A DNA stretch of 57,152 nucleotides, filler included, from Sphacelaria rigidula (lineage: Eukaryota), in NCBI GenBank assembly GCA_964200075.2. It is 8 parts of 8 records of this genome, joined end to end, with 100 filler letters (N's around TTAATTAATTAA, not from the genome) between each part and the next. Parts side by side here need not be neighbours in the genome. Positions count along the whole stretch, not along the records: positions 1 to 7,057 come from CAXNAA020016719.1; 7 more parts are not named here. One strand, given 5' to 3'. Below, piece by piece: positions 1,945 through 50,096 of this stretch (position 1 is its first letter; every line of letters starts with the position of its first letter). Both the position numbers and the translations under genes were made by a program. The notes under the pieces are model-generated. The model worked only from the letters and a program-made list of their open reading frames with translations, was not told the DNA's origin and did not search any database.

Positions 1945-2695
1945 TAGCTGGACACGACCCGCCGTCAGCAGTATAGTGAGGTCCCACAGATGATATCTCA
2001 GCCGTATGAAGCGGGGATGGTCATCCAACGATAAGGGGAGAAGATTTTTCAACCAAAAAAATACCCCAAAAGAGCCACGTTGAGCGTGAGGCAGCATAGA
2101 GCTTTTGGATTCCTCTTGATGTTCATATTCAGCGACATGTTGGTACCTTGGCGATGCGTTACCTCAAGAAACATGTGCTTTGTTGTACTTTATAGCGTAC
2201 GAACCCCCTTGTATAGGGCAACACTTTATAATCCTACCGTGGCTTGACTAGGTCGCGTAGCCCGCACCAGGTGATCGCAAGAGTTTCGGACTGTGATCGA
2301 GCCACGGTGTAGCTGAGGAGTATCCCCGTCGTCGATTGGTGATCCGTGTAATAAGAGTCTCGTCTATGGAGAGTGCGTTTTGGCAATGATATCGTTTCGC
2401 CGCTAGAACGATCGACTTTTTAGTAGTTTACCACGAACTCATTGCATTCGAATGCCCACAGTTATTTCTCCAGCCGAATATTGGCCTCTTTGAGCCACAA
2501 TTGAGTAAGAACAAGAACCCACTCCCGCCGTAGGATGGCTGTCCGAAACTATTTTCGCCATTTTACTTTCCACATCGACACCAACAGCATGCTACGAAGT
2601 CGTTACGAAGACTTCCTGAAGCGACCGACGTCTCATATTATCTCCTTTGTTCGGGCGACAATCTGGTCACCACCCTCCTCCCACTGGCTAAGGAC

Positions 2696-2836
2696 TGTGA
2701 CGATTTTAAAAGATAACCAACTAGACCACTGACCAGTCAGTGCCGACTGCTCAGTAGTCTAGTTGGTTGTCCCTTAAACCGTCACAAAAGTTAGTCGTTG
2801 GTTCGATTCCCGTCGGACGCATTTTCTTTGAAGAAG
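2696..2836 (+). mobile_element. Truncated copy of the palindromic-LTR mini-retroelement (one LTR plus start of internal region)
   Basis: TGTGACG...CGTCACA palindrome at 2696-2786 followed by AAAGTTAGTCGTTGGTTCGATTCCCGTCGGACGCA, matching 4891-5040. Confidence 0.85.
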
Positions 2837-2939
2837 CTCACACGCACACATACACTGACGAACCACCACAAGCCGCAAAAGCAACAGTAGCAGTACTGTT
2901 GTACGGAGATCGCCGTTGAAGTTATCGCACACGCTTCAC

Positions 2940-3908
2940 GCCCGCGCATAACAGAGCTGGCACACCATTTTTGAACCTACCCACCCAAAACAGAGCAGGC
3001 GGCATGCCACGGCGCGCACACGCAAAACACAGCTCACACGCACACGTACACTGACGAAACACCACTACCTAGCCGCAAAAGCAACAGCAGCAGCGGTACT
3101 GTAGTACGGAGACCGCCGTTGAACTTATCGCACACGCTTCACGTGCCTAGCAGGCAACTGAATCATCACGTACTCTTGTGTGTTTGGATCAATTGTTGTG
3201 TGTTTGTTTCAAATGTTTGTAGTGAAGATATATATTATATTCCGGGTGTGTTCGCCGTTATCTCGCTGTTCTTCGCTGCGTTCATTGTGTTGGCGTGTTG
3301 GTCAGGGACAACAAGAGCAGTCTTGAAAACGCTTTCGATGGCGATATCAGCAAACCATCTGCTGTCGTCCTGATTGTTGAAGTCGCTTGTGCTCACGGCA
3401 AGGCTTTCAGAACCGTAAATGCCACCGTCCCGCACAATATTTTCTGTATAGCGCACCGTACTGTCTACTACTACTTACTGTCTGCGGTTAGGGGCAAATG
3501 CTACGCGGCACTCTGTGTACTAAATACCAGAAACAATTGATCCAAGCACACAATGATTGATCTTGACACACAAGAGTGCGTACTTCAGTTGCCTGTATTG
3601 TCTCTGGAACATACTTTTACTACAAACATTTGATCCGAACACACAACAATTGATCCAAACACACAATAGTACGTGATGGTTCAGTCGCCTGCTAGGCGCG
3701 TGAAGCGTGTGCGATAAGTTCAACGGCAGTTTTTGTACTACAGTACTGCTGCTGTTGCTTTTTCGGCTAGCTACTGGTGGATCGTCAGTGCATGTGTGCG
3801 TGTGAGCTGTGTTGTGGGTGTGCGTTCTGTGGCATGCCCTATGTGCCTGCTCTGTTTCGGGTGGGTGGGTTCGAAAATGGTGTGCCGGCTCTGTTGCGTA
3901 CGGGCGGA
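2940..3908. repeat. Long inverted repeat / foldback element (arms ~2940-3227 and ~3612-3908) with a tandem partial duplication at 2836-2940
   Basis: The arms are reverse complements. The ORF track shows near-identical peptides MNLSHTLH...CVWINCCVF on opposite strands (3119+ and 3723-). Confidence 0.85.
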
Positions 3909-4020
3909 TTCGAAAATGGTGTTGGTAGGACCGGCGGGTCTACACAAATTCGATGTGAGACTGGTCCTAGACTGCTGGCAGGTTCTGTTTTTTGGACAGC
4001 GCTGGCGTGAATACGGCGGG

Positions 4021-4290
4021 TGCTCTTTTCGGGGCAAAAACGACGGAGAAGGGTCGAAAAAAAACTTTTCAACACGTCATGTTTTTTGATAACTTGACCG
4101 TTTGTTATTGAAGAAGTTTTTGTGGCCAAGAACGAAACTGTGACCTACGGAAAACGCAAAGGTGCTCTGGAACGGCCTCAGCGAGTAGAGCAAGTCATTC
4201 CAAGGTGTCAACATTCGCTGAGCCCTCTTTTCGGGGCAAAAACGACGGAGAAGGGTAAGAAAAATACTTTTCAACAAGTTATATTTTTCG
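4021..4290. repeat. Direct repeat CTCTTTTCGGGGCAAAAACGACGGAGAAGGGT, two copies ~200 bp apart
   Basis: Copies at ~4023-4055 and ~4224-4256, with similar downstream sequence. Confidence 0.7.
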
Positions 4291-4890
4291 ATACATAAGG
4301 AGCCTAACAAAGGAAAAGGAAAAAAGAAAACTGGAAGCGCGATGCGAAGCAGAACAATCTATTTTATATTCATGTCTTTGACTACTGGCATGATCATATG
4401 ATGGAATTCGTTCGCTGTCAATGAAAAAGTGAAGTTGGCAACAAGTGCTATGGAGGTTATATGTGTGTTGCCATGTATCGTATATCCTGTATAATGTATC
4501 ACCCGACTAGGAAGGCCCCCAGACCCGACGGGTAAGGTGGAAGGTGAGGATGCCGGGGTCAGAGGAATGCTACGGTGGGAGTGCAGAAATATTCTCCGAG
4601 GTTAGAATTGTTAGGAGCCTTTATCTCATCCAAAACACGATTCATGAAATATGTGAGAGTACGCCAGGTTTACTATTTCAATGTGCTAGAGACATCGCGG
4701 ATGAATTTGCGAACAAGGGTTACCATGTTCTTGCGCATCTAGAACCTTCGGGAGTCCCTGAGCCAGACAAGATTTCGCGCAAAAAGTGTATTCGTATCGT
4801 GGCATTGTTCGTCAGAGAATGAACTACCTACACCCTATTGCCAGCTTTGACCTGAATAAAACAGCCGATCATCGATATTGAGGATGGACC

Positions 4891-5802
4891 TGTGACGGTT
4901 TAAGAGATAACCAACTAGACTACTGACCAGTCAGCACTGACTGGTCAGTAGTCTGACTGGTCAGAAGTCTAGTTGGTTGTCCTTTAAACCGTCACAAGAG
5001 TTAGTCGCTGGTTCGATTCCCGTCGGACGCACTTTCATTGAAGAAAAAAAGAAGAGAGAAAACCTCGGTAAAAAATTGACTCAAAGAAAAGGGTGGGCTA
5101 TGTTTGGAGTGTACTGCTAGGGATCCAAGTGTACACACTCTGGAATGAGTGGGGGAGACGAGTAACTCAAGGGTACGGTGAAAGCGGCAACACTAGAGGT
5201 CCTGATGGCAGTCGATAGAGCGCTGGCAAGGGGAGTCGCCCTCCTCAGAGTGAAAGAAAGTGATGGGGACTGAATCCCCACGACTAACTTTTGTGATGGT
5301 TCAAGAGACAACCAACTAGACTACTGACCGCTTACTGGTCAGTAGTCCAGTTGGTTGTCTCTTAAACCGTCACAAAAGTTAGTCGCTGGTTCGATTCCCG
5401 TCGGACGCACTTCCTTTGAAGAAAAAAGAGGAGAGAAAACCTCTGATAGAAAGTTGGCCCCAAGGAGAGAAACCTCAGTAAAAATTGGCCCAAAGAAAAA
5501 GGGTGGGGCATAGCCTGGTGGCTATGTTTGGAGTGTACTACTAAGGTCCCAAATGCGCACACTCTCGGAATGAGTGGGGGAGACGAGTAAGCCTAGAATA
5601 CGGTGAAAGCGACGACACTAGAGGTGCTGATAGCAGTCGATAGAGCGCTGGCAAGGGGAGTTGCTCTCCTCGGAGTGAAAGTGACGGGGAGTGAACCTCC
5701 ACGACTAACTTTTGTGGTGGTTTAAGAGACAACCAACTAGACTACTGACCTGTCAGCGCTGACTGGTCAGTAGTCTAGTTGGTTGTCTCTTAAACCGTCA
5801 CA
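4891..5802 (+). mobile_element. Tandem TRIM-like non-autonomous LTR element with palindromic LTRs (LTR 4891-4996, internal 4997-5291, LTR 5292-5374, internal 5375-5712, LTR 5713-5802)
   Basis: Three TG...CA-bounded direct repeats alternate with two homologous ~300-340 bp spacers. GACC lies on both flanks (4887-4890, 5803-5806) as a 4-bp TSD. No credible ORF. Confidence 0.85.
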
Positions 5803-5845
5803 GACCTTTCCATTGAGGATGAGAACCCGCAGGATTGAAATCGTC

Positions 5846-6160
5846 GTATCCACACAAAATCTTCGAAATATGGTTCCATCCCTTCACCCACTACGACGTC
5901 GCTCGTCGTAGCTATTGACAACTGCTACACGCCCTAGTAATTTGGATTTCGATTACCGAATTGTTGAGGTCCTAGGGGTAAAACCAATTTCGAAGAATTT
6001 CGGCGATCGGATCAGATCACCTCAAATTCCCCATTTTTTCTTCATATAGGACCCCAACATTTCGGTTACCCAAATCCAAATTTGTAGGGCGTGTAGTAGT
6101 TGTCAATAGCTACCATTAGGTAAAGGAATGAAACCATGTTTCGAAGATTGGGTGTGGATA
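5846..6160. repeat. Degenerate foldback/MITE-like inverted repeat
   Basis: GTAGCTATTGACAACTGCTACACGCCCTA (5908-5936) pairs with TAGGGCGTGTAGTAGTTGTCAATAGCTAC (6085-6113). Complementarity extends outward to TATCCACAC/GTGTGGATA. Confidence 0.75.
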
Positions 6161-7057: not shown

Positions 7058-7157
7058 NNNNNNNNNNNNNNNNNNNNNNNNNNNNNNNNNNNNNNNNNNN
7101 NTTAATTAATTAANNNNNNNNNNNNNNNNNNNNNNNNNNNNNNNNNNNNNNNNNNNN
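7058..7157. other. Artificial contig linker
   Basis: 44 N + TTAATTAATTAA (stops in all six frames) + 44 N. Confidence 0.98.
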
Positions 7158-7418: not shown

Positions 7419-7640
7419 CCAAACAACTACTTGAACAGAATCGTGTGCAAGTAGTTGTCTCCAAACAACTAACTGCTCAGAATCGTGCGCAACTGGTTGC
7501 TTCCAAACTCTACTGTTCCAAAATCGTGCGCAACTACAGTAGTTGATTCCAAACAACTATTGTTACAAAATCGTACGCAACGAGTTGTTTCCAAACAATT
7601 ACTCTCTCAGAATCGTGCGCAACTAGTTGTTTGGAAACAA
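7419..7640. repeat. Minisatellite, ~5 copies of a 42-46 bp unit
   Basis: Unit approximately CCAAACAACTA-N-CAGAATCGTGCGCAACTAGTTGTTT. Confidence 0.85.
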
Positions 7641-9837
7641 GTAGTTAGTTGTTCTTCATAGTTGTACAGGATGTGAAAGGTTCGCTTGAGCCCAGGGAGC
7701 ACTTGGAGACATTTCCTAGGAGCCATGCTGTATCCCTAACCCCTGATATGGCGGGAAACGGAGAGGAGGGGGGCATGCTATGCATGTCTCTATTTGTCCC
7801 CGCCATATCGCAGTTACATTCGTGGGGACCTGTAGCTTTGGGCGTATATCTATGGTTGACACCATCTACGGTTGGCAGGAAGGAATGTTCCCGAATCCTA
7901 CGCCGTTTGTCGGTTGTGGCTGCTCATAGGGAACTGCTACTCAGCCGCAGAACTTTATATTGTGAGTTTAGAACCTTTCCGGTTCCACGTACCGGCGGTT
8001 GAAAATCGCACACTTTCATCTCATGTTGCCGTGGTTCTGTAGCGTGGAGTATGCTGCTGACACCTCAACGACCGAGGTCAGCACAAGCTGAGAAACTGGC
8101 TGTCAGATTGTTCACTGATGTCAGTGGATGCTGATGAAATAGTACTGCTTGTGTGGATTTAGTAAATTTGTGGTAACGGCTGGGATGACGTGCAGCTCCT
8201 GCCAGCAAGGCAACAGGAGAAGAGAGAGGAGTTGTGAGGCCGTTGTAGGTGAGGCAGTTGTGAGTGTGGAGGAGAGGGAGAGATAGTGAAAGCGGGGATA
8301 GAAGGAGAGGGACATTCCCTTATTTTCTGATGAATCTTGCCAGCGTGGTGGTGAATCTTGTCTCATGAATCGTTCGAGGGCGTGTTATCGCACGTCACCG
8401 GGGCGCTGAGTTCATAGGTACAGGTCATTATAAAGTAGTCAAACTGGAATCATTGTTTCTGTCGTTGTTTTCCATGATTGTTGTGGGGATTTTCTCTGGA
8501 TACGTGCGTTACTCGAAGCATATCTGCCGCAGGTGAGCAAGATTGCATTATTTGGTTATTTATTGTCCGGGCCAGGTCTGGACTAGATTTTCCTCCGTTG
8601 GCTTGCTACAGCCCAGGACAGTAGCAGAAGGAAAGCTGAAAAGAATGTGCAGTCAGAAACGATGATATTTTGATGAGCGCCAACAGGGCACCAAGTCAAA
8701 GCAAGCAAAGCATACACCTTCGAGAGGAAGCGGCACTCTAGCACACGGGAACGTGCACACGAGAGATATACCTTATTGCGTTAGCCATCTGATGTCCCGT
8801 GTTTAGAGTGCATGGTTGTCTCCACCGTTGTACCGCAACATGTTTCTGTCGCGATACCGACAGTATCCCCATCGCAAGAAGATTCGCCAGCGCTGGCCAG
8901 CCAGCTGTCACCGTGCTTGTCATGCATGTCTGTATGGCATCGATCAGCACGAGCCATCAACAACAGCACGACAGCCCACAAAAAGGAGCCAGAAGAATTG
9001 ATGCGTATAGAGTCCTTGTCGGGTCATGTCCCGTTCGACCAACATGAAACAAGACACAACGACGACGATGGAGCCATCTTAAATCATGCCCCGCATCCAA
9101 GGCCGTGCAGGATGCAGCACCAAAACCTGAGCGCAAATAGAGACTGCAACACCACCCCTGACCTCCGCAACCATACCGCGGGCACGGGACACTCAAAGCA
9201 AACGTTGGGTACACTGCCCCGTATACCAAGAGACAGAGCACCGGTTGTGGGACCGCTGTCATCTTGGATATCATCCTGCCTCCGCACGGTGCTGCACTGC
9301 GGCTGCGGGCACCAGAAGACTGGCAAAACCACGTGTGACGGAACCTATACTAAAATTAAGTTTGTACTTTGAAATGTATCATTAAACGTAAATGGGCTGG
9401 TCAAAACTTTTGATCAATTTACTTGGAATAAGTCTTGGTACTGCGAAAATAAACCCGTACCTGTGGACCCGCCGCCGTCACCAGCCGCAGAAATCGTCAT
9501 GATTATTTTTAATATTTCCACACATTACTCCTATCTCTCGAACCCGTAGTCACAAACGAAAGGATGTTATATCACTTGACTGGTACTGCGTCAGATGGTA
9601 CGTCCAATGAGTGCAAGGGCCCCATCGCTCTTTCGAGTACCCCAAACCTGCCGGATTACACTTTTAAATATCAACCGTTTCTCCACCCGAATACGAGCTT
9701 GGCCAGCCTAGAAGCAGATTTGAAGTTTGCAGGCCCATTCGCATTTGAAACTTGGAGTTGGAGATCCTAAGATTTGGCACAGGCTAGTTCACGCTCATCA
9801 CCCCAAAAAAACAATCATCGGCAAACCTCACACCGTT

Positions 9838-10456
9838 TCAAGAAGTTAGACCCTGAAATTTTGGACAGATGTTCTACGGGGCATTACGCAACTTTCGAAG
9901 GTCGAGGTTCTCATACTTTTTGTCCTTTTCACCGTTTTGGGGGGGTCCCAGTTTCCTCGGGGAAACATCGATCCAATCATACCCCCGTCAAACGGTAAAA
10001 AAATGAGAAATAAAAACCTCGTGCATGAAAAGTTCCATAATGACCTATAGCACAATTGTGCAAAATTTCAGGGTCTAACTCCTTGATTCGGCGTGAGGTG
10101 TTACGCTTTTGTGCGATGGACTTTGCCATGCCGCGGTGAAACCGCAAACTATTTGATTTTAGTACGAAAACTGCGGTTTTGGGCCTTCTTTGACGTGAAC
10201 ATGTAAATGTGAGCATCAGTTGATCGAGTTTTGAGACAAAATTTTGTGGGGTCCTTCCTTGGGTAACGCGGCGACAAATCGTCCGATAAAAAATTAAGAA
10301 CAACGTCGTAGTGCCGGTTTTTCGGGGTCCCAGAGTGGAGACTACTTTGAAGAACGACTGGGATCCCGTCGGGCCCCGAAAAACGAAAAATACTCGAGAC
10401 GTAAAGAAACCTCGTCCATAGAAAGTTGCGTAATGACACATTACAGGGTCCAACTT
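9838..10456. repeat. Inverted and direct ~70-bp repeats, probably a decayed DNA-transposon derivative
   Basis: AGTTAGACCCTGAAATTTTG (~9844) versus CAAAATTTCAGGGTCTAACT (~10061). A third related copy lies at ~10408-10456. Confidence 0.6.
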
Positions 10457-11457
10457 GTACTAACGGCGTGTTCCGCGTTTGTGGAGGACGTGGGCTTGAA
10501 ACGTGAAACTCCTAACTACTTGGTTTTAGTATTTAAACGTCTTGATCGGTGAAACTCACGTCAAGGCATGAAAAACTGTGTTAAGTTTTCGAGTTTCTCA
10601 ACCAAACTTTGTAGATATGTTCCTTGGGTTATTGGATTATTGGGTTATCCCGCGACGCATCATTTTATTATTTTTCTTCTGGGGCTCTCTGTATCGCCTT
10701 CCGGAGGTCTTTATACTGGGACCCCCGGAAGGTGGTGGAAAACAGAGGAACTCTGAAATATTGTCAAGAATTACAATTGTCTCTGCTTGGAGCATAAATA
10801 TCTACCAAACTGTCAAGTTTGAGGGCGATCTGAGATTTTCTACAACAGATGGAGAGGACACCGTCACCACGGCTCCCTTAGTCTCCCGTGCGTATCATTG
10901 GTGGAAATTAGACGACGCCGAAACGCGACATCACCGAAACATCACGGTTTCGGATATGATTCGACCCCCGTAGTAACCGTTTTCTAATATATATATATAT
11001 ATATATATTTGTTTCGTAGGATTCCCGAGCCGATGGTGGTTACTACGATGTGAAGCATGTGAAGGTTGGGTGAAACTTGGGCTTGCAAATCGTAATTTTG
11101 ATCTCGGAACAATTTGACGGCCGCTGATTGGTCGATATACCCTTTCGCCCTTAGCGCTACCACTATGGCCTTACACACAAATCCGGCTATGTCACGCTCT
11201 TCAGCTGTCGATGGCGGTCAGTATGAAATCATGTATGCGACTATTGAGTAGGTATTGCGGAAGGCATTAGCTGATGACACAGTTTTGGTGACAAGCGCGT
11301 GAACCAGCCTGTATGAACAATCAAGGAGGAAACAATAAAATAAGTTATGCATGGACCCGAAGATCTTTTGTTCGTGATTCAACGGCATTTGTCGGAAGCC
11401 TAAAAAGTGAGCAGTGCCTTTGATTCATGAAAACAAAAATGCCACAGGCACCGTGCG

Positions 11458-14214: not shown

Positions 14215-14314
14215 NNNNNNNNNNNNNNNNNNNNNNNNNNNNNNNNNNNNNNNNNNNNTTAATTAATTAANNNNNNNNNNNNNNNNNNNNNNNNNNNNNN
14301 NNNNNNNNNNNNNN
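14215..14314. other. Artificial contig linker
   Basis: 44 N + TTAATTAATTAA + 44 N. Confidence 0.98.
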
Positions 14315-21371: not shown

Positions 21372-21471
21372 NNNNNNNNNNNNNNNNNNNNNNNNNNNNN
21401 NNNNNNNNNNNNNNNTTAATTAATTAANNNNNNNNNNNNNNNNNNNNNNNNNNNNNNNNNNNNNNNNNNNN
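21372..21471. other. Artificial contig linker
   Basis: 44 N + TTAATTAATTAA + 44 N. Confidence 0.98.
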
Positions 21472-22899
21472 AGGCCAGTGGATTCTGGAGAAGTCCCTCA
21501 CTGAATAGCCCTCTTGTCCAGATCGTCTGGCAGAGGCTATAGTCCACGGTGCAGGCGAAACAGCACGTCTTTTTGCCACACGCGTCGTCCGCCTCGCAGC
21601 ACCCGCCATGAGTTCTTCGGGGGAAAAACGCAAGGAAACTATGATTTCTGCCGTAAGCGGCAACGAGGTACGCAGCCAATTCACGGCCTGAAGGAATTGC
21701 ATGAGTTCTGCGGCCGTCTCCGGGCGCCGCATGTCAGAAAAGCTTTGCAATCTGACAGGGTCATGAGATACGCGTCCGTGTGAGTACTCTTCCCCACACC
21801 ACACGAATTCACCAGCGAAAAAGGTACACTTGTGCGCAGCCGCAGACAAACCAACACTCTTTAAACGAGCCAATATAGCTTCAGGCGTGTCTGAAAGTTC
21901 GTCTTCCGTGTCCGCGAAAAAAAGCACATCATCCACCCATGTCTTGTCTTTTAAGCCGACGACAGGTTCTGTCATGATGCCTTGAAAATATGCCGTGGCA
22001 TTTAGCACGCCTCGCGGCACTCGATTCAGGCTAAACAGGCGAAAATAAGTCGTGATGGTGAAAATCACCTGCGCCTCCTCCGCCAACGGCATCTGCCAGT
22101 AACCTTGGAGGAGGTCGAACTTGCCAAAATGACGAGTACGCAACAGATCACGTATGCCCGACCTTTGATTGGGCATCATACCCAGCGACTTCTCAACCTA
22201 CTCATTTACGGCCTTGTAGTCGCTCACCAGGCGAAACGAGTCCTCCTTCGGAACCGCCATAGCCGGACTGGACCACACCGCGTGCAAGTTCCGGAACACC
22301 AATCCGAGCGCCAAAAGAGCCGCCATGCACGACGCCAACCAACTCGACTTCACCGGATTGTACCGCCGCGGCTTCAGCTTCACCGCGGACGCCCCGGGTT
22401 TTAGCTGAGCACGCATGGGCTCCACTTGCGCAGGGGGATCACCCCGCAGCGCACGACGAAACGCGTTGACGCGGCGATGCAAGATGCCACGCAGGCGCTC
22501 TGCTTTTGACACGCTGAGGCCTTTCGCCACAGCATCCGTCACGCTCTCCTCAAGAGCGACCTTCCGAGCGGACTCCTTTTCCGTCGGATCCATGAACATC
22601 TCCGAGCCGCGCTCCACCAAGTGTTCCGCCGCCTCATCCCGCTCCTCGATCATCTGCCTCCTAGCCTGCTGACAAGCGTTCACCGACAAGCTCACGCGAC
22701 GACTGCCCAAAAAGGCGGACGTCTCCACGCACGGACCAGGCGGAGATATCCGCGCATTCATGGAGCCCCACAACTGCGCATACGAGTCGACTCTAAGATC
22801 CTGAAGCGTCAGAAACCCCAGAAGAATGACGCCATCCGACCCCGACATGATCGTAAACGATATCGGAGGCAACGGCGCCGGCCCCCAGGAAGTCGTCAA
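21472..22899 (-). pseudogene. Gypsy pol (end of protease and reverse transcriptase), disrupted
   Basis: ORFs 22198-22899 and 21472-22179 are separated by an in-frame stop. RT motifs as above. Confidence 0.92.
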
Positions 22900-24743
22900 A
22901 GCCAGCTGCAGCGGAACAGTACGTTACGTGACGGAAACATAATAACCCGACGCGCTGACGGCCTGCCGCGCCCCGAGCAAAAACGGAATGCGCAGCGGCA
23001 CATCCTGGAGAAAATGCTCCACATCTACACAATCTGCACCAAATAACTCGTGATGTGGGCACCAGAATCCAACAAAGCCCGAACCGCAATGGCTCCACGC
23101 TTCCGCTGATTAGGAAGACACAGTTCCACAGGAACGTACTTGTCCGCAAACTTCACTGGCACTTTATCGGCCGACCGATGCGCCGCTAATCCCACTTGAC
23201 GCCACGGGTGCGCAAGCTGCGCTGGCGAAGACGCCCCGGCGGGTTCAAACAGCACCGCCGGTGAGCACGACCCCCAGCCAGCAGACCGAGAATTTGGCGA
23301 AACTCCGACCAGCGCATCAGCAGGCGTCGCGCCTGGCGCTGCTGTCGGGGTCGCCACCGGCGCCACCACCGGCACCGGCGCAGTGTTCGACACTGTATAA
23401 GTCGGTCCCACCCGCATCGCTCGTTGCGGAGCAGCAGCACCTACGGCGGCGCCGAATCCAGAACCAGACCCATGCTGCGCCGCTGCTCTTGCTGCCCTTG
23501 CTGTCCTTGCTGCTGCTGCTGCTGCTGAGAACTCGACTGCGACCCTCCATCGTCGGAGAATCCGCGCCACCACCCCAATCACCTCGTCGTTTGCCCTTGT
23601 GCTGACGATGATGATGGCGCGCGGCATGAGACTGCCCAGACTCCCCACCGGAAGACGTTGGGCAATCGCGCGCGTAATGGCCGACCTGGCCACAGCGGTG
23701 GCAGTTGATGGTCGAGGCGCGGCCGGCCGATTTCGAGCCGTGGTGGCGCAAAGACTCAGGCGTGGAGGTGGACGACTGGCTGAACACCTCTATCTTCTGC
23801 CACCTCTTGGCCTCGGCCACGACGGTGTCTATTACCAGGTGAGTGTTGGCGTTCCGGTTTGTCTCTTGCTGCAACTTGACAAGCACGGCTTGCTTAAATT
23901 TTCCGGCGCCAACCCCTCCACCTAAGCCTTGGTGATTACTGCAGCCGGGCCCGGAATGAACTCACCATCGGAGGAACGATATACTAGTTCAACGCAACGT
24001 TTGGATTTTCTGAGAAGTACTTCTCCAGAATGGAGAAGATTGGCCCTATCCGCCCTAACAGTGTCTTTCCCCAGGACGCTACGGCGACCGCTTTCGCCAC
24101 GGGCGCGGAGGCTTGGGTCAGCTTCACCTCGGCGCCCGCCGCATGCCCAGCATGCTTTTTGACCGCCGCCACCAATTGCGGCGGGGTGATTGTGCTCTCA
24201 TCATGTTACACTCGAGCAAACACTCTCTGCACATGCGTCGGCACTTGTTGAGGCATCAACACTATCTGATATCGCACAGCACCCCCTGCGTTAGCGTGCT
24301 CCACACGCTTCTTGTACTCCAAGTACTTGATGTAAAAAGTGCGAGATGCATTCTCGGAGTACCTACCCCGGTATTTGGGAGGTCGCGACTCTTCCCACAT
24401 AATCATGGGCGTCACGCTGGACGCAGCACGCGAGCCGGTCGCCATAGCAGCAGCCGCCTACCTGCGAACCTTTCGCAGGCCAGCGGACCGTTGCAAATTA
24501 ACACTTCACCCTTGCTTCGTCGCCGCACTACACAGTCGTAGGAGCCTCCAAACTCCCGCTGCACGCAGCTTCAGCAAGTCTCTAGTCTGGAGCAATCAAA
24601 GGCTAACCGCCTTTCGGCAACCACCTCAGCTTCGACCCCCTCCACGCATCCGTGGTGAATCAGGTCGTCTCCAGCCACCAGACTCTTCCGCTGAAACTCC
24701 GGCAGGTTCCGTTCGGTACTAGTACTAGCACGGATACCGATAC

Positions 24744-24899
24744 TGTGACGCTAGCCAGGAGAAAACTGCTGAATCACTGTTGTTTGAGGTCCTCCCCAGT
24801 AGTATTAGCCTTAGTTTCAGTTGTCAGCCTTTACAACCTTTCATTACCCGGAGTGCCCTTGTACGCACAACCTCATAGACCCTCTCTTAAACCGTCACA
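24744..24899 (-). repeat. 5' LTR of the gypsy element (156 bp)
   Basis: Bounded by a 7-bp inverted repeat TGTGACG...CGTCACA, upstream of gag. Followed on the minus strand by CGGTATCCGTGC, 9/12 identical to the initiator-Met PBS TGGTATCAGAGC. Confidence 0.75.
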
Positions 24900-24904
24900 A
24901 CCCG

Positions 24905-27650
24905 CAGGGTTGTTGAAAGTTTCAGTAAATTGATTCAAAATGCTAGAGTATAGCCACTGTTTTTTATTCGTTGAGTATAAGTGGATCTTAGGAAATTTTC
25001 TGTTCGCAGATGCAGAAGGATCCTTGATGCTTGATTGATATGTGAATGTCATTTTCACAGCATGTGGACCAAGTGCAACCTGGAGAAAAACGCGGGAATG
25101 GTTTGAACCGCAAACTATCCAAGCAGTGAATCAACTACTGAAGAAGTACAACAGCAGATCCTTGGGCGCGCGTGAGGACCCACTCGAGCTCATTGCCGAC
25201 ATTAAGGCCATGCAGGCCAAAATTCGGGTGCTGCTTCCAAGCCATGCATCCAGCCAGGAAGCTGTCAGTGTTCGTATTATCGCGGCCGTGGCATCAAATG
25301 CAGGTTACGAGATTAAGACCCGCACGATGGGTTACGACGGGACTATCACACATGCAGAGTTGGTACGCATCATGGAGTCTCGTTATAGTCAGCTGCAGGA
25401 GTTTGCGGGGGCAGAAAAAATGGAGGCAGATGCGGCGAAGAAGGCTGCCGCATCATCGAAGGCCCTTCTTGCTGCGAACAACGGACGGAAAGGTGGCGGA
25501 AATAGCAAATTTAAATGCCGTGCTTATGGTGAGATTGGTCATGTAAGATCTCGGTGTCAAGCTGTCTGTACTAATTGCAGAGGAAAACCCCACAGTGCTA
25601 ATAAGTGCCGATCGTCGACAAAAGTGGAAGACAGTTAAGACGAGGAGAAGGAGGGGGAGATTGCATGCCTCAGAACTATTGAAATTGGTGATGATGCCGG
25701 TCACCACAACATCTTCGGGATGGATCCCACTGATGGCACTTTAGTGTGGATGGATTCCATTGATAACGCATCCTCCGTCGCGTTTTAGCTGTACTATACC
25801 GCTATTACAAGTGCAAATCCTTCGACATGTTTGGTTGCTGTGAGGGCTTGCTGGGTCTGGGTGGAGAGCTAGATATGACCGCTGTTGGAGGTGATATATT
25901 CTGGGCGAGGGGAAATGCCTGGAAGTCGAAGGCGTGTTTGATGGCTAAGGAGGCTCTAGCATGTTTGGGTTGAGGTGTTCGGGGGACAAGGAAATACGCG
26001 AATCACCTCGCATGAGAAAACGAAATGAGCAATGGACACACGGGTGGGCGAGCTGATGGGACTTGACCTGGTGCGCACAGAGACTGCTGATCGGTCGTCT
26101 AACGAAGGCTGGATCCCAATCACTGTATGGTGTGAAAAATGTGGGGTTGTTTTTATGTAGCCCCAGGAGCACGTTGTGGTATTGTTCTCACAGGTAGATA
26201 CGGATTCAAAAATGGGAAGTTCACAAAATAGCAAGTAGACAGCGTGAGGGCCAACTAAGAATGTCCTTGAGACGTGTGTATTAAGCGATGATATATATAT
26301 ATGATGTCTCTGAAGAGTGAGGTGGGATGCTGTCACTCGAGGCTTGATCAAAGAAAAACCCGCGCTCGGATGAGAGGATAATGAAGTGTCAAACTGTCAT
26401 TTGTGGGTAGGTCAGGTAAAGTAATGATCGAGATGAGTCTAGCCTAAAATATGAGTTTCAAAAAGGCTGGAATTGTGCCAGGAAAAACCAAGCTTGAGTG
26501 GAGAGCTTTAGAGAAGTAATCGGATGATGCTGTTACTTGTGAATTGGCATATTTGACAAAAAAGGCTCGTTAGAGTATAGACTACGCTATGTGTAAGTTG
26601 GAATATAAGAAAATATTGTCAAAATGGGGCTCACGTTCGAGACAGGGCGTAGTGGAGTGCAATACTGTACTACTGCCATTTTTAAGAGTCGGTGACATAC
26701 GAGGGGGCATGCATGCAATATGCCCAACCTGATGGTAAGTTGGTCGTTTTTAGTCACGAAGTATACACATGAAGCTGCATGTCGTGTAAACTGACCGTGA
26801 GTGCGGCTTGTTCGAAGACAGATGTTCCTATTGCATATAATAATTCTTTCCAGGTGGGCTAAATACAGGCAGGTACTGTCCCTGTGACCAGAAATTTGGA
26901 TTTTTAGATCCATAAAGGATCTTTAAAAGGGAAGAAGGGCTGTGTACTGCGGTAGTTATGATCGTTTTTGAGTATCAAATACTCGATCATTGTTTTGAGT
27001 TTGTTATCAGAGCTGGAAGGAACAACTGAATGATTTCCTAATCTGACCAACACGGGTGGTCACTAGGAACCTTGGGCAACGTCTGTAACATCAAAATTTG
27101 AGGTTGCAGGCACCCCAATGGCAACCCGTGAAGCATATGTCGCTGTAGTATAAACTGGAGATATCTGAATAGGGAGGAAGGAGCCGATAATAAGTAGATA
27201 CCGGTATCAGATTTTTGTCATTCCCGGTTCATATGCGAGTATAAAATATTGTGATGTACATTTGTGAACTATGCGACGCACGGTATAAGCAGGTGCAACT
27301 GTGGAAAACCTGTTCGTAAGGTTTTTGTGCAGGTGGTTGTTTTATGGAAAATAGAGGAAAGTTACAGAAAGTACTCGACAAAAGTAGGACTTCACCATGG
27401 GTTATAGGGAGATTGACAAGATGGATTCGCTCGTGATGTGTTTTTTGTTGTTTCCATGTTGATCGTGGTTGCTTTTATTAGCAGATTGATTCCATGTGGG
27501 AGGATGTTGATTGTTTCAGTAAATGGATTCACAAGGCTAGAGTATAGCCACTGTTGTTTATTCGCTGAGTGTAAGTGGATCTTAACAAAGTTTCTGTACG
27601 CAGATGCAGAAGAATAGTAGTATAGTGAATGTTTCATTGATTTTTTCTGT
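24905..27650 (+). mobile_element. Decayed, internally deleted Ty1/copia-like LTR element
   Basis: Direct repeats at ~24907-25020 and ~27503-27614 (GCTAGAGTATAGCCACTGTT...GCAGATGCAGAAG) flank a gag-like ORF. Outer boundaries approximate. Confidence 0.7.
25042..25638 (+). pseudogene. Copia-type gag remnant with zinc knuckles
   Basis: Helical gag-like region followed by CRAYGEIGHVRSRC (degenerate CCHC) and CTNCRGKPHSANKC. Confidence 0.75.
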
Positions 27651-28528: not shown

Positions 28529-28628
28529 NNNNNNNNNNNNNNNNNNNNNNNNNNNNNNNNNNNNNNNNNNNNTTAATTAATTAANNNNNNNNNNNNNNNN
28601 NNNNNNNNNNNNNNNNNNNNNNNNNNNN
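28529..28628. other. Artificial contig linker
   Basis: 44 N + TTAATTAATTAA + 44 N. Confidence 0.98.
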
Positions 28629-35684: not shown

Positions 35685-35784
35685 NNNNNNNNNNNNNNNN
35701 NNNNNNNNNNNNNNNNNNNNNNNNNNNNTTAATTAATTAANNNNNNNNNNNNNNNNNNNNNNNNNNNNNNNNNNNNNNNNNNNN
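35685..35784. other. Artificial contig linker
   Basis: 44 N + TTAATTAATTAA + 44 N. Confidence 0.98.
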
Positions 35785-42840: not shown

Positions 42841-42940
42841 NNNNNNNNNNNNNNNNNNNNNNNNNNNNNNNNNNNNNNNNNNNNTTAATTAATTAANNNN
42901 NNNNNNNNNNNNNNNNNNNNNNNNNNNNNNNNNNNNNNNN
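42841..42940. other. Artificial contig linker
   Basis: 44 N + TTAATTAATTAA + 44 N. Confidence 0.98.
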
Positions 42941-45900
42941 ACCATCGCTGAAAGTGTGGGGATAGCACTGTTTTAGGCTTGAACCTCATCTCAAAGTTAA
43001 ACCTCAATTCGCACAATTTGTTGTTCAAAGCTGTTTACCTCCTACGATACAACGGCAGTGTTGGTATTACACTCTCCGACGATCCTCAACTTTTGGGAGT
43101 TGCACGAGTTCGCCGAAATGGCATACCAGTACTTACGGGTCATTATCTTGCTGAAATGCTACCCCGTATTAGCCTACCAGCCAACACAGAACATTTTGTC
43201 CCGGCGGGACAACAACTCCTCCCTCTTACGGGTCATGCTTGGAACCCGGCGATATTTGAGGAATCGCCGCTGCTCCTCGGATGCACATCCCACTCGAGAC
43301 GTGCGTAACAGAGCCTGCCGAGCCCAACGCACCATCTCCGACGGCGTCAGTCCATTGTGTCGATGAACCTTTTTTCGATATCGCTTCTGCGACTCCACCC
43401 CATGTCCACGCCGTGGATCCTGCCGAGTCAAACGATCCTCCTCCTGAAAAGCTTCAACGCTCATCAACATATTCTCGGAATCATTTCTTGCAAAAGTGGT
43501 CTCAACTGCCGCCACACATGCGTGATATCAATTTTGACCTTCATGGACCCGGCTGGGAACCGGCAGTCATCTGAGAACTCAGTGATGTCCTGCTACAGTA
43601 CCAAGACTGATTTTCTCGATCCAAGACGGATCTTGGGCACTGCAAAACGCTGCCCTTTGAGGTTACCCTCCAACCCGGCGTCTCATCAATCTCTTCTCGA
43701 CCGTACCGGACAAACCCAATCCTTACCAAGAAGGTCAATACCATCTTGGATGCACATTCGGGAGCGGGATTAATACAACATTCCTTCTCTCTTTGGGCCT
43801 CGCCCCTTGTGGTCGGTCCGCAAAAGGATGTAAACATGCGCATAACCGTGAATTACCAACGGTTGAACCGCGTCACTGAGATTGGTAAACTTCCAATCCT
43901 CCGCGTTGATGAAGTCTTCGACTCCTTATGCGAAGGCGAAATATTCAGCACCTTCGACCTCGCTTCTGTCTTTTTTTTTAGAATGCTATCCCCCCTGACA
44001 CAGTCCCACTAACGGCCTCTTGTACCTCGTCCGGGCTCTACGAGTGGCTTCGAATGCCACAAGGCGCTGCCACTGCTCCGGATGCTTTCATCGCTTAATG
44101 CAACGCGTCACCGAGGGCCTCGAGCACATCATCATGTACCTAGATGACGCTATCGCTTTTGATGCCTCACCTATTGCACACATCCGCACTCTACGAGAAC
44201 TTCTCTCTCGCACACGAACACACGACTTGAAACTGCCTCCATCCAAAGGTCGCCTCGGTGCGACTGACTTAAATTTCCTGCGTCCATTCAATTTCGCCAG
44301 CAGGACTACATCCGGATACAAACAAAGTCAGGGCGATGACGGACTTACCGATGACAACCAACATCTCTCGACTTCGCTCATTGTTGGGCGGACTATCCTA
44401 CTACCGCAAACGTTTACCGAATTCATCTAAACGGATTCGCCCCCTTACTGAGTTACTCAAGAAATGAGCCGTGTTTACCTTCACAACCGATATGGAGAAT
44501 ACCACCGAAAGCCGGTACTCTGTTTTCCTAATTGGGAGGCAAAACAAGATGGCTCTCGCCATCGTTATCTCCACATTGACGCCAGCACAGACGGATTTGG
44601 AGGAGTTTTGAATCAACCTCAGGTTGATGGCTCCGTTCGAACCATCCTCTACATCAGCCGCGCCACCCTGCCCAGCGAGGCCAACTGGAGCCCGCTAGAA
44701 TTGGAAGGTGGAGTGATCACTTGGGCCACTAAGCGCCTTCGGCGATATTTGTTTCACGTGCCCTTTGAGATTTATACCGATCATGGAGCACTCGAACAAC
44801 TCGCCAAGGTTGGCGAACACAACCCGCGTGTGCAAAAATGGCTGGAGTTTCTGACAGCATTTCACTATACCATTAAGCACCGTCCAGGCAAAATCAACGA
44901 GAACGCTGATCTTCTTTCTCGACTACCCCTGCCGCCTACGGCCGCAGATTTCAGCCCGGCTTGCTGTTCAACTGACCTGATGAACCCGGAATCTACCCGA
45001 TTAGACGTTCTTCAACGCCCGTTTATGCCCTCGATCTCCAGTGCCCAGAAACTGGTATGCATGTGGGAGGACCTCGCCCTCTACCATATGACACCATCTT
45101 GGGTGAGTGAAAGCCCACAACTGCGGGCTTTGTGGACTTCCGTACTTTTGGTACTCACGCGAAGCTTTCCACGGGAAAACCTTCGGTCACCCATCTAATC
45201 TTCGACAACACGCGCTCCCGGTCTGCGCCCGCCCCACCCCTCCGAGTGCCCCGCCGCCACTGATAACACCTGCAAATTCCACGAGCCACGCAGGACCTGT
45301 CCCACGGACCAGCACGCAACGCTCCGCGAAAGCTCGGACAATCTTCGCTGCGCACTGATACAGCCCCGCCGCGCATAACGGTGGCACTAACATCTACCGC
45401 TCCCGAGCATAGAGTCGACGACTCAGCTCCTGCTCCCGGGGCAGATATTGACGTCGGCATTTCTGTCCCGTCGCCTATTCCCCCGCTGCCTACCGCACCA
45501 TGTTTGGTCAGCTCTCCAGCAGAAGGTAAACTGCGCGAGTTTTTCGCCAGCTACTCTCACTGCGACTGGGCTCGCGAAAAAAACTCGGAACCATTATGTC
45601 GAGCAGCCATCCGGTACTTTGACTGTCCAATCCCTTTTCCGTCCGCCATTCTGGCCCCGGTGGGCACACTGCCACCACCAGATATCTCTGACGTACGAAC
45701 TCGTGCGTAAAGGCACTACTGTTAATACGGATGAAGGCGAACAACTACTCGTGCGTCGCTCCACGCCTTTGACGGGCGCAATTTCCGTCTCAACCATGAG
45801 ACGCCACGCACGACTACTCGATGGCGAACCAATGCCCATATATCTCCCATTATTAATGCGCCCCTAGGTCATGAAAGGCTGTCACACAGACTTGTCATGT

Positions 45901-47063
45901 CACCTTGGCGTCACCCGCACCCTAGCGCTCTTGGAACGATTTTACTGGTGGGTTGGCATGGAAATTTCCACCCGCTTCTGGGTTCGGCGATGCTTCAAAG
46001 GCCAAGCCCTAAAACCTTCACGACAGACAGTACGCTGGTCCGTCATCTCTATGGGACTCCCCAATGCCCCAGACCACCTTGTGTCCTTTGACTACTTTGG
46101 CCCTCTACGGACCACTGGTCGCGTCAACACCTATATCTTACTCTTCACTGACCGCTTCAGCCGCCACGTGTCCATGTACGCGGTAACCGCTGCATATTTC
46201 ACTGCCGCCGGAACGGCCGATATATCGGTCCACGGCTACATTAAGCACTACGGTTGCCCGAAACGACTCCTTTCAGACCAATTTCTCTCAGATCTCTCTG
46301 ATAAGCTCTACAAGCTCCTGGGCATCCGCAAAATTGCCACTAGCGCCTGCCACCCGAACGGTAACAATGGTACCGAAAGAGTTAATCACACCATGGCCCA
46401 GATGATCTCTATGGTCGTCAATGACCGCCAAAATGACTGGGACCTACATCTCTCGCACATCATGGTGTCCTACAACAACTCGATTAACGCCGCCACAGGC
46501 CTTTCCCGGAACGAACTCCGTCTTGGACGTTACCCTCGGTTGCCCATCACCGCGTTTGAGCGACACACGTTCGATGGCCACCAAGGATTGGATCAGGATC
46601 AGATATCCTATCACGAACTAGCGCACTCACGACAATGCAAATCGTTCACCCTCGTGCGCGAACAACACGCTATCAACGCCACGCGCCTTGAGAGATCCAA
46701 CACTGCTCTCTACAACGTCCTGGACAAATGCCTCGACTGGAAAGTTGGTGATTGGGTTTGGATCTACAACAGTTTGTCGACCATCCGCCAAGGCACCAGC
46801 AAAGCCGCCAACGAAACAACTTTGAAGACAAAATTGCCCATCAACTGGACAGGACCTTTCAAGTTCCTGACAGTTGGATCATCGCCATCATCACTGGATG
46901 ATAAACCCGTTGGTGACAAACTGCTCTACCTCGACCTGCCTCACGACCTCCAGGGCAAGGACACCAAACCCCGCGTCTCGGTGCACAGATGCAAAGCCTG
47001 CAGGAACCCGCATGATAAAAGCGAGATGCCCAAGCATCTACCTGCCGGACTCAAACGGTACGT
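42941..47063 (+). mobile_element. Second Ty3/gypsy retrotransposon, pol region (RT, RNase H, integrase), degenerate
   Basis: RT WASPLVV, RITVNYQRLN, FDLAS and YLDD (43746-44300). RNase H DAS..GFG, ELE, YTDH and NADLLSR (44464-44940). Integrase follows RNase H. Many frameshifts. Confidence 0.95.
45871..47063 (+). pseudogene. Gypsy integrase (HHCC zinc-finger remnant and DDE core)
   Basis: CHTDLSCHLGVTRT...FYWW, FDYFGPL, FTDRFSR, LLSD, NNGTERVNHT, WTGPF. Small deletion after LSD. The ORF tail beyond ~47063 looks unrelated. Confidence 0.92.
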
Positions 47064-49112
47064 TGTCAGGTACGAGTGTGAACTTGTAAATAAGATATCA
47101 ATTGGGGTGTCGTGCCACACCCAAGCACTACACCCCCCTCCCAGCAAGGGAGTCTAACATCGATGAGACTGACTGATAGAGTGTGAGAGGTCGGATACTG
47201 TGAGGATTGAGATAAAGTAATCAAGAAGAGACATTATCTACCTACGCGTGACATTCTGATACCTTTGACACGTGTGTGAGGGTGGTACGCAGTGTAAACA
47301 TATACTGCATAACACTTGTGCCTATTGTGCGGCTTGTTTGTCCAGCCTGTTGACTGGCCCCCCGCCTTGCCTATTGAGCCTGCGCTTGCCATACGTCCAG
47401 CACAATCCCATGACACTTCCCCCTGATTAGACGATAAGTACGATATGCGGATCACGCCCCAACTTGTTTGTGTCGATGAGATATGGCCGCGAGAGTTTGA
47501 ATCCGTTTTCAGGCTGGTCCAGGTCGTATTGATCCCCTGAAGGACCACCCGAAAAAACTACAGATTCGGTCACCATCTAAGAGGTTGGTAGTTGTGAACT
47601 TCAGCCTCATAGAAAAAAGGTTGCCCATGAGAACGGGTGCCCAGTTCAGAGGTTCCAACAAGGTCGACAGCCCACCATAAACGGCCGCTACAAAGAAGAA
47701 CGTCATTTTGTATTTGCCGCGCATTATCGATGATAGATGTTCAGTCGTGCATTCAAAGTTGATAATTTTGTTTGATGCAAGAGGCTTTGTCACCTTCTAT
47801 TGTCTCCGAGTGGAAGCTATCGCTGTTGCGGAGGCAAGCGGCGATATGAACATGATGGAGGATTCTGAAAAGTGGGGGTCGAGACTGACAATGGGATTGA
47901 AGCTGCCTTCCGAAAAGGCACATTTCCCCCGAAACTTGCGGATCTTTTGTTGCTGTTGCCGCTAAGCACGTGTGGCTAGTTTCAATCAATACTGTGTACA
48001 GGTGTGTCGATGATGATATCACCAGAGAAGCAATGATATCACAGGAGAAGCAACGGTGGAGAGAAAGTTCCTCGTCCGTGCCCGTTTTGTGTCCTCGTTC
48101 GGCGATTTCCAATCGCTGGAAAGAGTTTCATCACGCTACCAGCACATACCCAGTTTGCCATCGTCGGCACACGAAGGGCAGATGGTTTCGTGTGCAGCTC
48201 CCTAAGAAGATCCGTGTGCCCAGGGTTGCCGTATTTTGACTGATGATCGTCTCTTGTCTGTGGCGCTGACCAATGCAATTCTCTCTCTGCCTCTCTTTTC
48301 GGATAGGACATACCTCTATGCGCTACAAAACACCGTCGAAAAACAGGGCGATGTTCCCGTCACCACTACTGTTCTCACACACACGCACGTGCGAGCAAGG
48401 ACGGTTTGCGGCAAGATCTAATCGCATGTCGGGGGGGTGTTGTTGTTTTCGTCGTTGATATTGCCCGACGTTTAGCACAAGGACACGAGTCATGCACATC
48501 CCAGTTGGGGGCATGCATAAGAGATCAGACACCCATGGAGACCTTCTTAGCATGCGGAGTGAGACACTTTCTACGACAGCCTCCCCCAAAAACCAGCCCA
48601 AAAGTGTCACGAAAAACATGGTCATACAGCGCCTGATGTTTGGGTTCAGGCTGCATGAAGCGCTTCATAGTGGCGACATTGGCTAGAACGAACCCAAGCG
48701 TGGTAATCCCCAGCTGTTCGTTGTGCTCGGCTTTTCCCGTTTTGATTTACATGGAAGTGTTGCCTTCCAAAACATGCACGTTTGGGGGGGGCGGCTATCG
48801 TAGAAAGTGTCGTGAAAAATGATAAATCTGGCGGTGGCTTAGCTGTGGCTAGCGTGACCCATATGGGGGCTGGCATACTGCACTATGTGCGCTCATCTGA
48901 TATACAGTTGGTCGCGTGCGCAGAGGTGTGTATGTGTGTTTCTTACAAGATTCGACTCTGAGGAGGCCATCGCGAGTTGAGACGAGATATGTTTCCACCA
49001 GGGACAAAGTTTATCCATCTGCCGTTTCATTTGTGACCCACGCCAAGAGCTGTTCCAATTCCAATTTCACAAAGTAAAGTTGGTTTCTGCTGTGGGTAAA
49101 AATTCGACTAAG

Positions 49113-49996: not shown

Positions 49997-50096
49997 NNNN
50001 NNNNNNNNNNNNNNNNNNNNNNNNNNNNNNNNNNNNNNNNTTAATTAATTAANNNNNNNNNNNNNNNNNNNNNNNNNNNNNNNNNNNNNNNNNNNN
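49997..50096. other. Artificial contig linker
   Basis: 44 N + TTAATTAATTAA + 44 N. Confidence 0.98.

Follow-up and report, generated by a model that had tools for sequence, protein, structure and literature searches.

A highly abundant palindrome-bounded non-coding mobile element of Sphacelaria rigidula with symmetric internal ends

Positions 4891-5802 (912 bp) of the window, by which we mean the entire 57,152-nucleotide stretch of Sphacelaria rigidula DNA analysed here, constitute a single insertion of a non-coding mobile element of very high abundance. Its palindromic end repeats are direct and inverted terminal repeats simultaneously. The new observation here is that, judged from sequence identity, the outer 17 nt of this palindrome equal the 5' end of an element with gag and a Ty3-like reverse transcriptase (RT). 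It is very probable that the 912-bp element is non-autonomous and owes its insertion to a retroviral-type integrase or to a closely related DDE enzyme. More tentatively, with what we consider somewhat less than an even chance, it represents a TRIM-like parasite of a retroviral-type integrase with non-canonical priming via its complementary ends.

Architecture, insertion and abundance of the element

The window consists of eight pieces of about 7.06 kb, which are joined by 100-nt N linkers around TTAATTAATTAA (7058-7157, 14215-14314, 21372-21471, 28529-28628, 35685-35784, 42841-42940 and 49997-50096), and adjacent pieces are not necessarily neighbours in the genome. The element in the first piece shows the layout P-int-P-int-P, in which three palindromes (P), all of the form TGTG...CACA, surround two related internal units. 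The first palindrome (P1, 4891-4996, 106 bp, TGTGACGG...CCGTCACA) contains a 16-nt internal duplication; its bounds are corrected here from 4891-4998. P2 (5292-5374, 83 bp) is self-complementary at 72/83 positions and P3 (5713-5802, 90 bp) at 84/90. The plus-strand internal units at 4997-5291 and 5375-5712 share a mean column identity of 86% with two indels. Unit 1 starts with AGAGTTAGTCG, carries a B box at 5010-5020 and a purine run at 5040-5062, and reads GGGGACTGAATCCCC and then CGACTAACTTT at its end (5281-5291). Unit 2 has its B box (GGTTCGATTCC) at 5388-5398, a purine run at 5418-5439 and, at its right end, a B-box-like motif on the minus strand (5697 to 5687) followed by CGACTAACTTT at 5702-5712. 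A duplication of 34-46 nt around 5446-5491 in unit 2 is absent in many family copies, as seen from contig joints linking 5445 to 5480 and 5445 to 5492.

A partial third copy is located at 2696-2835 (plus strand) and comprises a palindrome (2696-2786) and the first 49 internal nt with A box and B box, after which unrelated repeats follow. Searches with blastn and nhmmer revealed no further copies in the window besides the three loci, and direct reading was limited to two full units and one partial copy. The centre of the palindrome differs between the four copies read (CA, CG, GCTTA and TGCCGA). Within the 912 bp there is no open reading frame (ORF) of at least 50 aa, and the sole ATG-initiated ORF of at least 40 aa encodes 49 aa. 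Short TG..CA terminal direct repeats, here three of 83-106 bp, around a short non-coding internal domain are a feature of TRIMs. The internal plus strand is 61% purine, and all A-runs are confined to one strand, a bias which fits an RNA-copied sense strand.

For the analysis of the insertion, contigs of four public runs, one labelled as algae metagenome and three from one organism, were placed on positions 4700-6000; X1, X2 and X3 are DNA runs, and contigs of X4, which is only presumed to be an RNA run, were not counted as evidence of expression. In all four runs, contigs link approximately 4885-4889 to approximately 5805-5813 and thereby omit 916-924 bases. The empty-site joint from 4887 to 5806 was found in 6 (X1), 3 (X2), 4 (X3) and 1 (X4) contigs, and the left-flank consensus stands directly before 5806 in 13 contigs of X3. 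The joined site holds 4 letters, while the filled site reads GACC, 912 bp, GACC. Sequence and contig joints therefore agree on a 4-bp target-site duplication (GACC at 4887-4890 and 5803-5806), and the entire P-int-P-int-P structure represents a single insertion into another repeat. Just behind 5803, contigs diverge into unrelated sequence (62 in X1, 48 in X2 and 57 in X3; agreement of the loose-end consensus 0.35), and therefore the family ends at CACA. A short target duplication of 3-6 bp, here GACC/GACC with 4 bp, is likewise a feature of TRIMs. Per DNA run, 7,772-10,568 contig pieces matched the 1.3-kb stretch, a count that includes the host and flank repeat.

The host of the insertion (4744-4890 and 5807-6160) is a second very abundant repeat, which also occurs without the element in contigs of the public runs. 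Its right part forms a nested foldback with the arms 5847-5888/6119-6160 and 5908-5974/6047-6113. Besides that, short tandem or dispersed direct repeats lie near the element at 7419-7638, 3842-3919, 4023-4293 and 3532-3667, with about 42-nt units repeated five times, 39-nt units repeated twice, 69-nt copies 202 nt apart and 23-nt units.

Symmetric internal ends in place of priming signals

The 11-mer AAAGTTAGTCG (5375-5385, plus strand) occupies the position where a primer-binding site (PBS) would be expected, and its reverse complement CGACTAACTTT is found at both 5281-5291 and 5702-5712. The counterpart in unit 1, AGAGTTAGTCG at 4997-5007, deviates by one mismatch. On re-reading the sequence, the letters and coordinates originally quoted for this pair and for the minus-strand readings of the right ends (AAAGTTAGTCGTGGAGGTTCACTCCCC, 5712 to 5686, and AAAGTTAGTCGTGGGGATTCAGTCCCC, 5291 to 5265) were all right. 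Together with the 11-mers, the palindrome forms arms of 49 nt (5281-5329/5337-5385), which were 94% complementary in the repeat search, an extension far beyond chance. The extension of the palindrome by 11 bp into the internal region was confirmed, but it understates the symmetry, as the inverted similarity reaches about 55 nt inward. Aligning the three plus-strand 5' internal ends with the two minus-strand 3' internal ends, we observed the 11-mer, then a T-arm/B-box-like block and then CTTTCAYT..GARGA, interrupted by a single 7-nt indel (CGGACGC), which is present at the plus-strand end only. Each unit has terminal inverted repeats (TIRs) of about 140 nt (palindrome and about 55 nt) beside its direct terminal repeats, and the repeat search reported a long inverted pair in the element with 72-nt arms at 92%. 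RNA folding of the monomer returned the long panhandle that the complementary ends had led to expect (z -9.2 and -15.8 against 100 shuffles), which is a trivial consequence of the inverted repeat of the ends. In all likelihood, the symmetric 11-mers are part of this long inverted repeat and not a degenerate PBS and polypurine tract (PPT).

At the element's own junctions we found neither a conventional tRNA-complementary PBS nor a purine tract next to the repeats, as had been predicted. The first 12 nt behind the 5' repeat contain no TGG; the internal region begins with AAAGTTAGTCGC, and the first TGG at +13 opens the sense-strand GGTTCGATTCC and not an anti-tRNA sequence. We take the positions of GGTTCGATTCC to be of the G53/C61 type, as in the T arm of a tRNA. 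At both junctions, only 8 of the last 20 nt before the 3' repeat are purines, and long purine runs (22-23 nt) instead lie 42-44 nt downstream of the 5' palindrome. A PBS for a CCA-tailed form of the tRNA-like module was also considered and rejected, because only the module's own complement was found.

In the TRIM-like reading, an RNA intermediate might be read from the plus strand, and pairing of its complementary 5' and 3' internal ends could replace both the tRNA primer site and the polypurine tract, with priming or strand transfer possibly proceeding through the paired ends. In the bipartite PBS of Ty3, the T arm and D arm of the primer are bound by the 3' half (PMC5371799), CYC5/CYC3 of Ty1 offers a precedent for 5'-3' pairing in reverse transcription (PMC3681743), and Tf1 uses an 11-base self-priming (PMC7175516). 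Reverse transcription in these systems thus relies, like the proposed route, on 11 complementary bases or on pairing of a 5'-repeat-adjacent sequence with one near the 3' end, and the partner candidate described below is Ty3-like, as in the precedent of the bipartite PBS. In contrast to Ty1 and Ty3 with their tRNA primer and to Tf1, which is primed by the RNA's own 5' end, the element has no tRNA-complementary site, and its 11-mer pairs with the 3' internal end and not, as in Tf1, with the repeat. Self-priming of the Tf1 type was rejected, as the first 38 internal nt share no complementary stretch of at least 7 nt with P2 or P3. The 11-mer shows no complementarity to any part of P, which counts against the TRIM-like reading in so far as priming is thus not of the Tf1 type. 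A further argument against this reading is that no complete reverse-transcription path to P-int-P in direct orientation was worked out. The inverted symmetry of about 55 nt inward, a trait of TIR-bearing DNA transposons, speaks against it as well. We know of no retro-mechanism that requires inverted symmetry reaching the internal region.

Pol III-like boxes and predicted transcripts

With GGTTCRANNCC as the consensus of the B box, the plus-strand B boxes at 5010-5020 and 5388-5398 match exactly. A-box-like sequences are located in P2 on the plus strand (TAGTCCAGTTGG, 5343-5354) and on the minus strand (TAGTCTAGTTGG, 5323 to 5312). An A box followed by a B box 28-42 nt further on was found only at 2755-2810 and 5343-5398 in the window and in 0/300 shuffles, and the P1 copy is one letter short of this pattern. 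The A box lies in the palindrome arm and the B box 45-47 nt further inward, and to judge by these motifs each internal end resembles a Pol III promoter of type 2.

On the minus strand, the B box misses one letter in unit 2 of this copy (GGTTCACTCCC, 5697 to 5687) and two letters in unit 1 (GATTCAGTCCC, 5276 to 5266). Family letters were derived from depth-weighted contig tables, using the best-supported rows among the matches listed. Among these matches, G>T at 5691 is supported by 67 contigs (X1 depth 305,765/306,488) and T>C at 5698 by 70 contigs (X1 depth 189,614/190,438), and the letters prevailing in the three DNA runs give a full match, GGTTCAATCCC. The second B-box-like motif on the opposite strand, whose conservation had been named beforehand as a test of the original prediction, is therefore conserved in the family and slightly decayed in this copy. 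The left palindrome arms hold the corresponding A box on the minus strand.

TTTT spans the junction between internal end and palindrome at 5710-5713 and again at 5289-5292, and these are the sole plus-strand runs of at least four T in the 912 bp. The absence of internal T4 is not significant, with approximately 60% of shuffles behaving likewise. In each unit, the minus strand contains 4-5 runs of at least four T, the first of them roughly 200 nt away from the palindrome centre, and because of these runs a minus transcript would be expected to stop well before the far end. In the prevailing family sequence, TTTCTTT stands on the plus strand directly after the tRNA-like module (5037 A>T and 5413 C>T, among the matches listed), and the copy at 2696 has TTTT at this position. 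Judging from these letters, TTTCTTT could end even the plus transcript at about 80 nt.

These observations bear directly on the full model of the original prediction, namely that convergent Pol III promoters and reverse transcription self-primed by a hairpin or panhandle yield head-to-tail multimers. Several of them are in its favour: the restriction of paired A and B boxes to this element (2 in the window), the canonical minus-strand B box in the family-prevailing letters, TTTT exactly at each junction of internal end and palindrome, the predicted panhandle, and a Vault RNA alignment (E 4.7, far below threshold) that covers A box, B box and T-run. However, the minus-strand T-runs make a full-length minus transcript unlikely and disfavour convergent full-length Pol III transcripts, and TTTCTTT or the TTTT of the 2696 copy could stop the plus transcript after the module. 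Convergent transcripts would furthermore form double-stranded RNA, and snap-back of the palindrome would yield inverted dimers, whereas the dimer observed here is direct. A special route to head-to-tail multimers is not needed either, since ordinary recombination accounts for them: Repeat(x)-internal(x-1) arrays are described as common in TRIMs and ascribed to repeat recombination (PMC6934838). Altogether, we regard this model as quite unlikely.

ARAGORN identified no tRNA gene in the window, and Rfam gave no tRNA match at E<=10, the 91-nt search included. The best plus-strand match in small windows was the Vault RNA alignment already mentioned, which aligns just A box, B box and T-run. The folds of the four tRNA-like modules did not surpass those of shuffles (z 0.06 to -1.5), and no cloverleaf is supported. 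In addition, all that Rfam reported for the hairpins were miRNA-precursor matches below threshold, the best scoring 41.4 bits where the gathering score is 100; there was no 5S match, and no hammerhead, the retrozyme trait, was among the 16 Rfam matches at E<=10 over 2650-5900. The box content might also be explained by a tRNA-derived SINE copied by a LINE, with A and B boxes at tRNA-like spacing and A-rich tracts after the head. This is highly improbable, as the sharp TGTG/CACA ends, the fixed 4-bp duplication, the lack of a 3' tail and of a cloverleaf (ARAGORN, Rfam and fold z-scores), and the 48-62 contigs per DNA run that diverge at the same base are at odds with it, and terminal direct repeats are not a SINE trait.

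One further possibility, which we consider unlikely, is a Pol III-transcribed, self-templating LTR-type retroelement. Here, a plus RNA would run from the palindrome centre, its start placed by A and B box, to TTTT at the junction of internal end and palindrome. The 3' end of this RNA (CGACUAACUUU) would pair with the 11-mer beside the 5' half-palindrome, and a reverse transcriptase could copy the arm. Turn-around at the palindrome centre and cutting at CA by a borrowed Ty3-type integrase would then rebuild the full palindromic repeats. Such a cycle would explain the near-perfect family palindrome with its variable centre, the complementary 11-mers at the PBS and PPT positions, plus-strand T-runs only at the junctions, and why tRNA site and purine tract are dispensable. 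Its weak point is that simple snap-back predicts inverted and not direct dimers.

Relationship to Ty3/gypsy-type elements and integrase-type DNA transposons

The terminal 16-mer of the element recurs exactly once outside of it in the window, at 24884-24899 on the minus strand, and the identity extends to 17 nt (TGTGACGGTTTAAGAGA, 24883-24899), which equals the outermost 17 nt of the palindrome. The site lies on another piece of the window, which is assumed to belong to the same genome. For a 16-mer, the chance expectation is 0.43 matches even at up to 3 mismatches. At this site lies the 5' end of an element that contains a gag-like ORF with a CCHC zinc knuckle (1.5e-07) and an RVT_1 reverse transcriptase (5.9e-13). 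The best solved relatives are Ty3 RT (4ol8, 3e-10), Ty3 Gag-Pol (7q5b) and foamy-virus Pol, and the partner candidate is therefore an LTR-type element and not a LINE. The shared LTR end together with the 4-bp duplication points to insertion by a retroviral-type integrase. In the TRIM-like reading, the outer 17 nt of the palindrome would reproduce the end of the 5' LTR of a Ty3/gypsy-type element and serve a borrowed integrase. The identity of this end with that of a gag-zinc-knuckle element with Ty3-like RT argues for this reading, as does, by analogy, the layout of three repeats and two internal units, which corresponds to the tandem pattern of TRIMs (PMC6934838). Against it stands that the two elements share nothing beyond terminal stretches: apart from the 17 nt and CGTCACA, with which a possible 156-nt LTR of the gag-RT element ends, nothing is common, and the post-LTR sequence is not shared.

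Concerning the partner candidate itself, 21472-24899 (minus strand) represents the 5' part of a Ty3/gypsy-type retrotransposon, which is cut by the piece end (21472) before the 3' LTR, and an in-frame stop lies at approximately 22195-22197 between its two ORFs. Downstream of the candidate 156-nt LTR, a TGG-type PBS is not apparent, and no second copy of the LTR is present in the window. About 8 nt beyond the end of this element begins a 114-nt direct repeat (24908-25021/27502-27615, 88%), so that a third repeat family abuts it; the paralog at 27502 showed no clean boundary. A second LTR-retrotransposon fragment is located at 44464-47157 (plus strand) and encodes RT-RNase H and integrase zinc-binding domains, and no TGTGACGGTTTAAGAG end is present near it.

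The most serious competing explanation is possible but somewhat weaker in our view: a non-autonomous cut-and-paste MITE or foldback DNA transposon mobilised by an integrase-like DDE transposase (Ginger1, Ginger2/TDD or IS481EU-like), in which the TIRs of about 140 nt would hold the transposase sites and the dimer would arise via recombination between palindromes. TGTNR ends and duplications of 3-6 bp mark LTR elements and integrase relatives alike, the latter including Ginger1 (4 bp), Ginger2 (4-5 bp) and IS481EU (PMC2836005, PMC10045372). The long inverted ends (72-nt arms, 92%, with the extension into the internal region), the lack of both PBS and PPT, and the small size and high copy number typical of MITEs fit a DNA transposon. 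Moreover, the element displays the features given for Ginger, namely TIRs within 40-270 bp, a duplication of 4 bp and TGTNR ends (PMC2836005), and IS481EU likewise has TGT..ACA ends and 4-bp duplications (PMC10045372). With Ginger1, Ginger2/TDD and IS481EU, the element thus has in common its TGTNR...YNACA ends, the 4-bp target duplication and TIRs whose length ranges from tens to hundreds of bp (PMC2836005, PMC10045372). Its target GACC, known from a single insertion with both flanks and thus too little to reveal a preference, is neither the CCGG/CCGT of Ginger1 nor the AT-rich RTATAY of Ginger2 (PMC2836005). The element further differs from Ginger and IS481EU in that its repeats are also direct and that the matching end, the sole one found with the same 17 nt, belongs to an element with gag and Ty3-like RT. 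An integrase-only gene was not seen in the window; the integrase and RT ORFs of the window all belong to LTR-type elements, and the integrase ORF follows the RNase H domain of an RT. A DNA transposon would also leave unexplained the purine and A-run strand bias and the near-perfect palindrome of the outer 90 bp at each end.

Returning to the TRIM-like reading, we compared the element with TRIMs as presented in PMC6934838, which includes TRIMs without a recognisable PBS, for example biv-TRIM. The element resembles these in its size of less than 1 kb per unit, its non-coding nature, the short TG..CA direct repeats, the short target duplication, the tandem repeat(x)-internal(x-1) array and, as for biv-TRIM, the lack of a recognisable PBS (PMC6934838). 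In contrast, its repeats are palindromes of 83-106 bp as compared to the usual 100-250 bp, both PBS and PPT are lacking whereas biv-TRIM retains a 7-bp PPT (PMC6934838), and its internal ends are mutually inverted over about 55 nt. A Pol III promoter look-alike in or at the terminal repeats of a small LTR-type element is also found in the Cassandra TRIMs of plants (PMC12486564). The boxes of the element differ from those of Cassandra in being of the tRNA type, straddling the border between repeat and internal region and occurring on both strands, without a 5S match. Cassandra itself carries a 5S-derived (type 1) Pol III promoter in its LTR and has both PBS and PPT. Elements of the DIRS/Ngaro type are not known to create a target duplication, and their repeats are inverted or split and accompanied by a complementary region in the interior; membership in this group was ruled out by the 4-bp duplication.

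A metagenome scan with the junction pattern returned 14 loci, all of them chance matches of at most 24 nt. Scans of viral contigs gave 0 matches and scans of genome contigs 0 real matches, with 1 chance match inside a bacterial coding region. In the openly accessible literature, the element's strings were found in no paper, and no description of a TRIM with palindromic LTRs or with tRNA-type boxes was found.

In this element, features of LTR retrotransposons and of integrase-type DNA transposons meet: of a Ty3/gypsy-type element, its direct and inverted end repeats contain just the end that the integrase recognises, and the standard priming signals are absent. If mobile via RNA, it would be an LTR-type element in which tRNA primer and polypurine tract are replaced, and thereby a compact model for non-canonical priming. 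If mobile as DNA, an LTR end would have been reused as a transposon end, which bears on the kinship of Ginger-like and LTR elements. In either case, thousands of copies with a perfect hairpin and a B box probably supply this genome, to judge from their sequence, with small RNAs and TFIIIC-type sites.

Inverted repeats also occur elsewhere in the window. At 29583-29740/30265-30420 we observed a 156-nt inverted repeat (79%) with telomere-like CCCTAA/TTAGGG runs in its arms, and a further inverted pair of 41 nt lies at 30210-30250/30379-30419.
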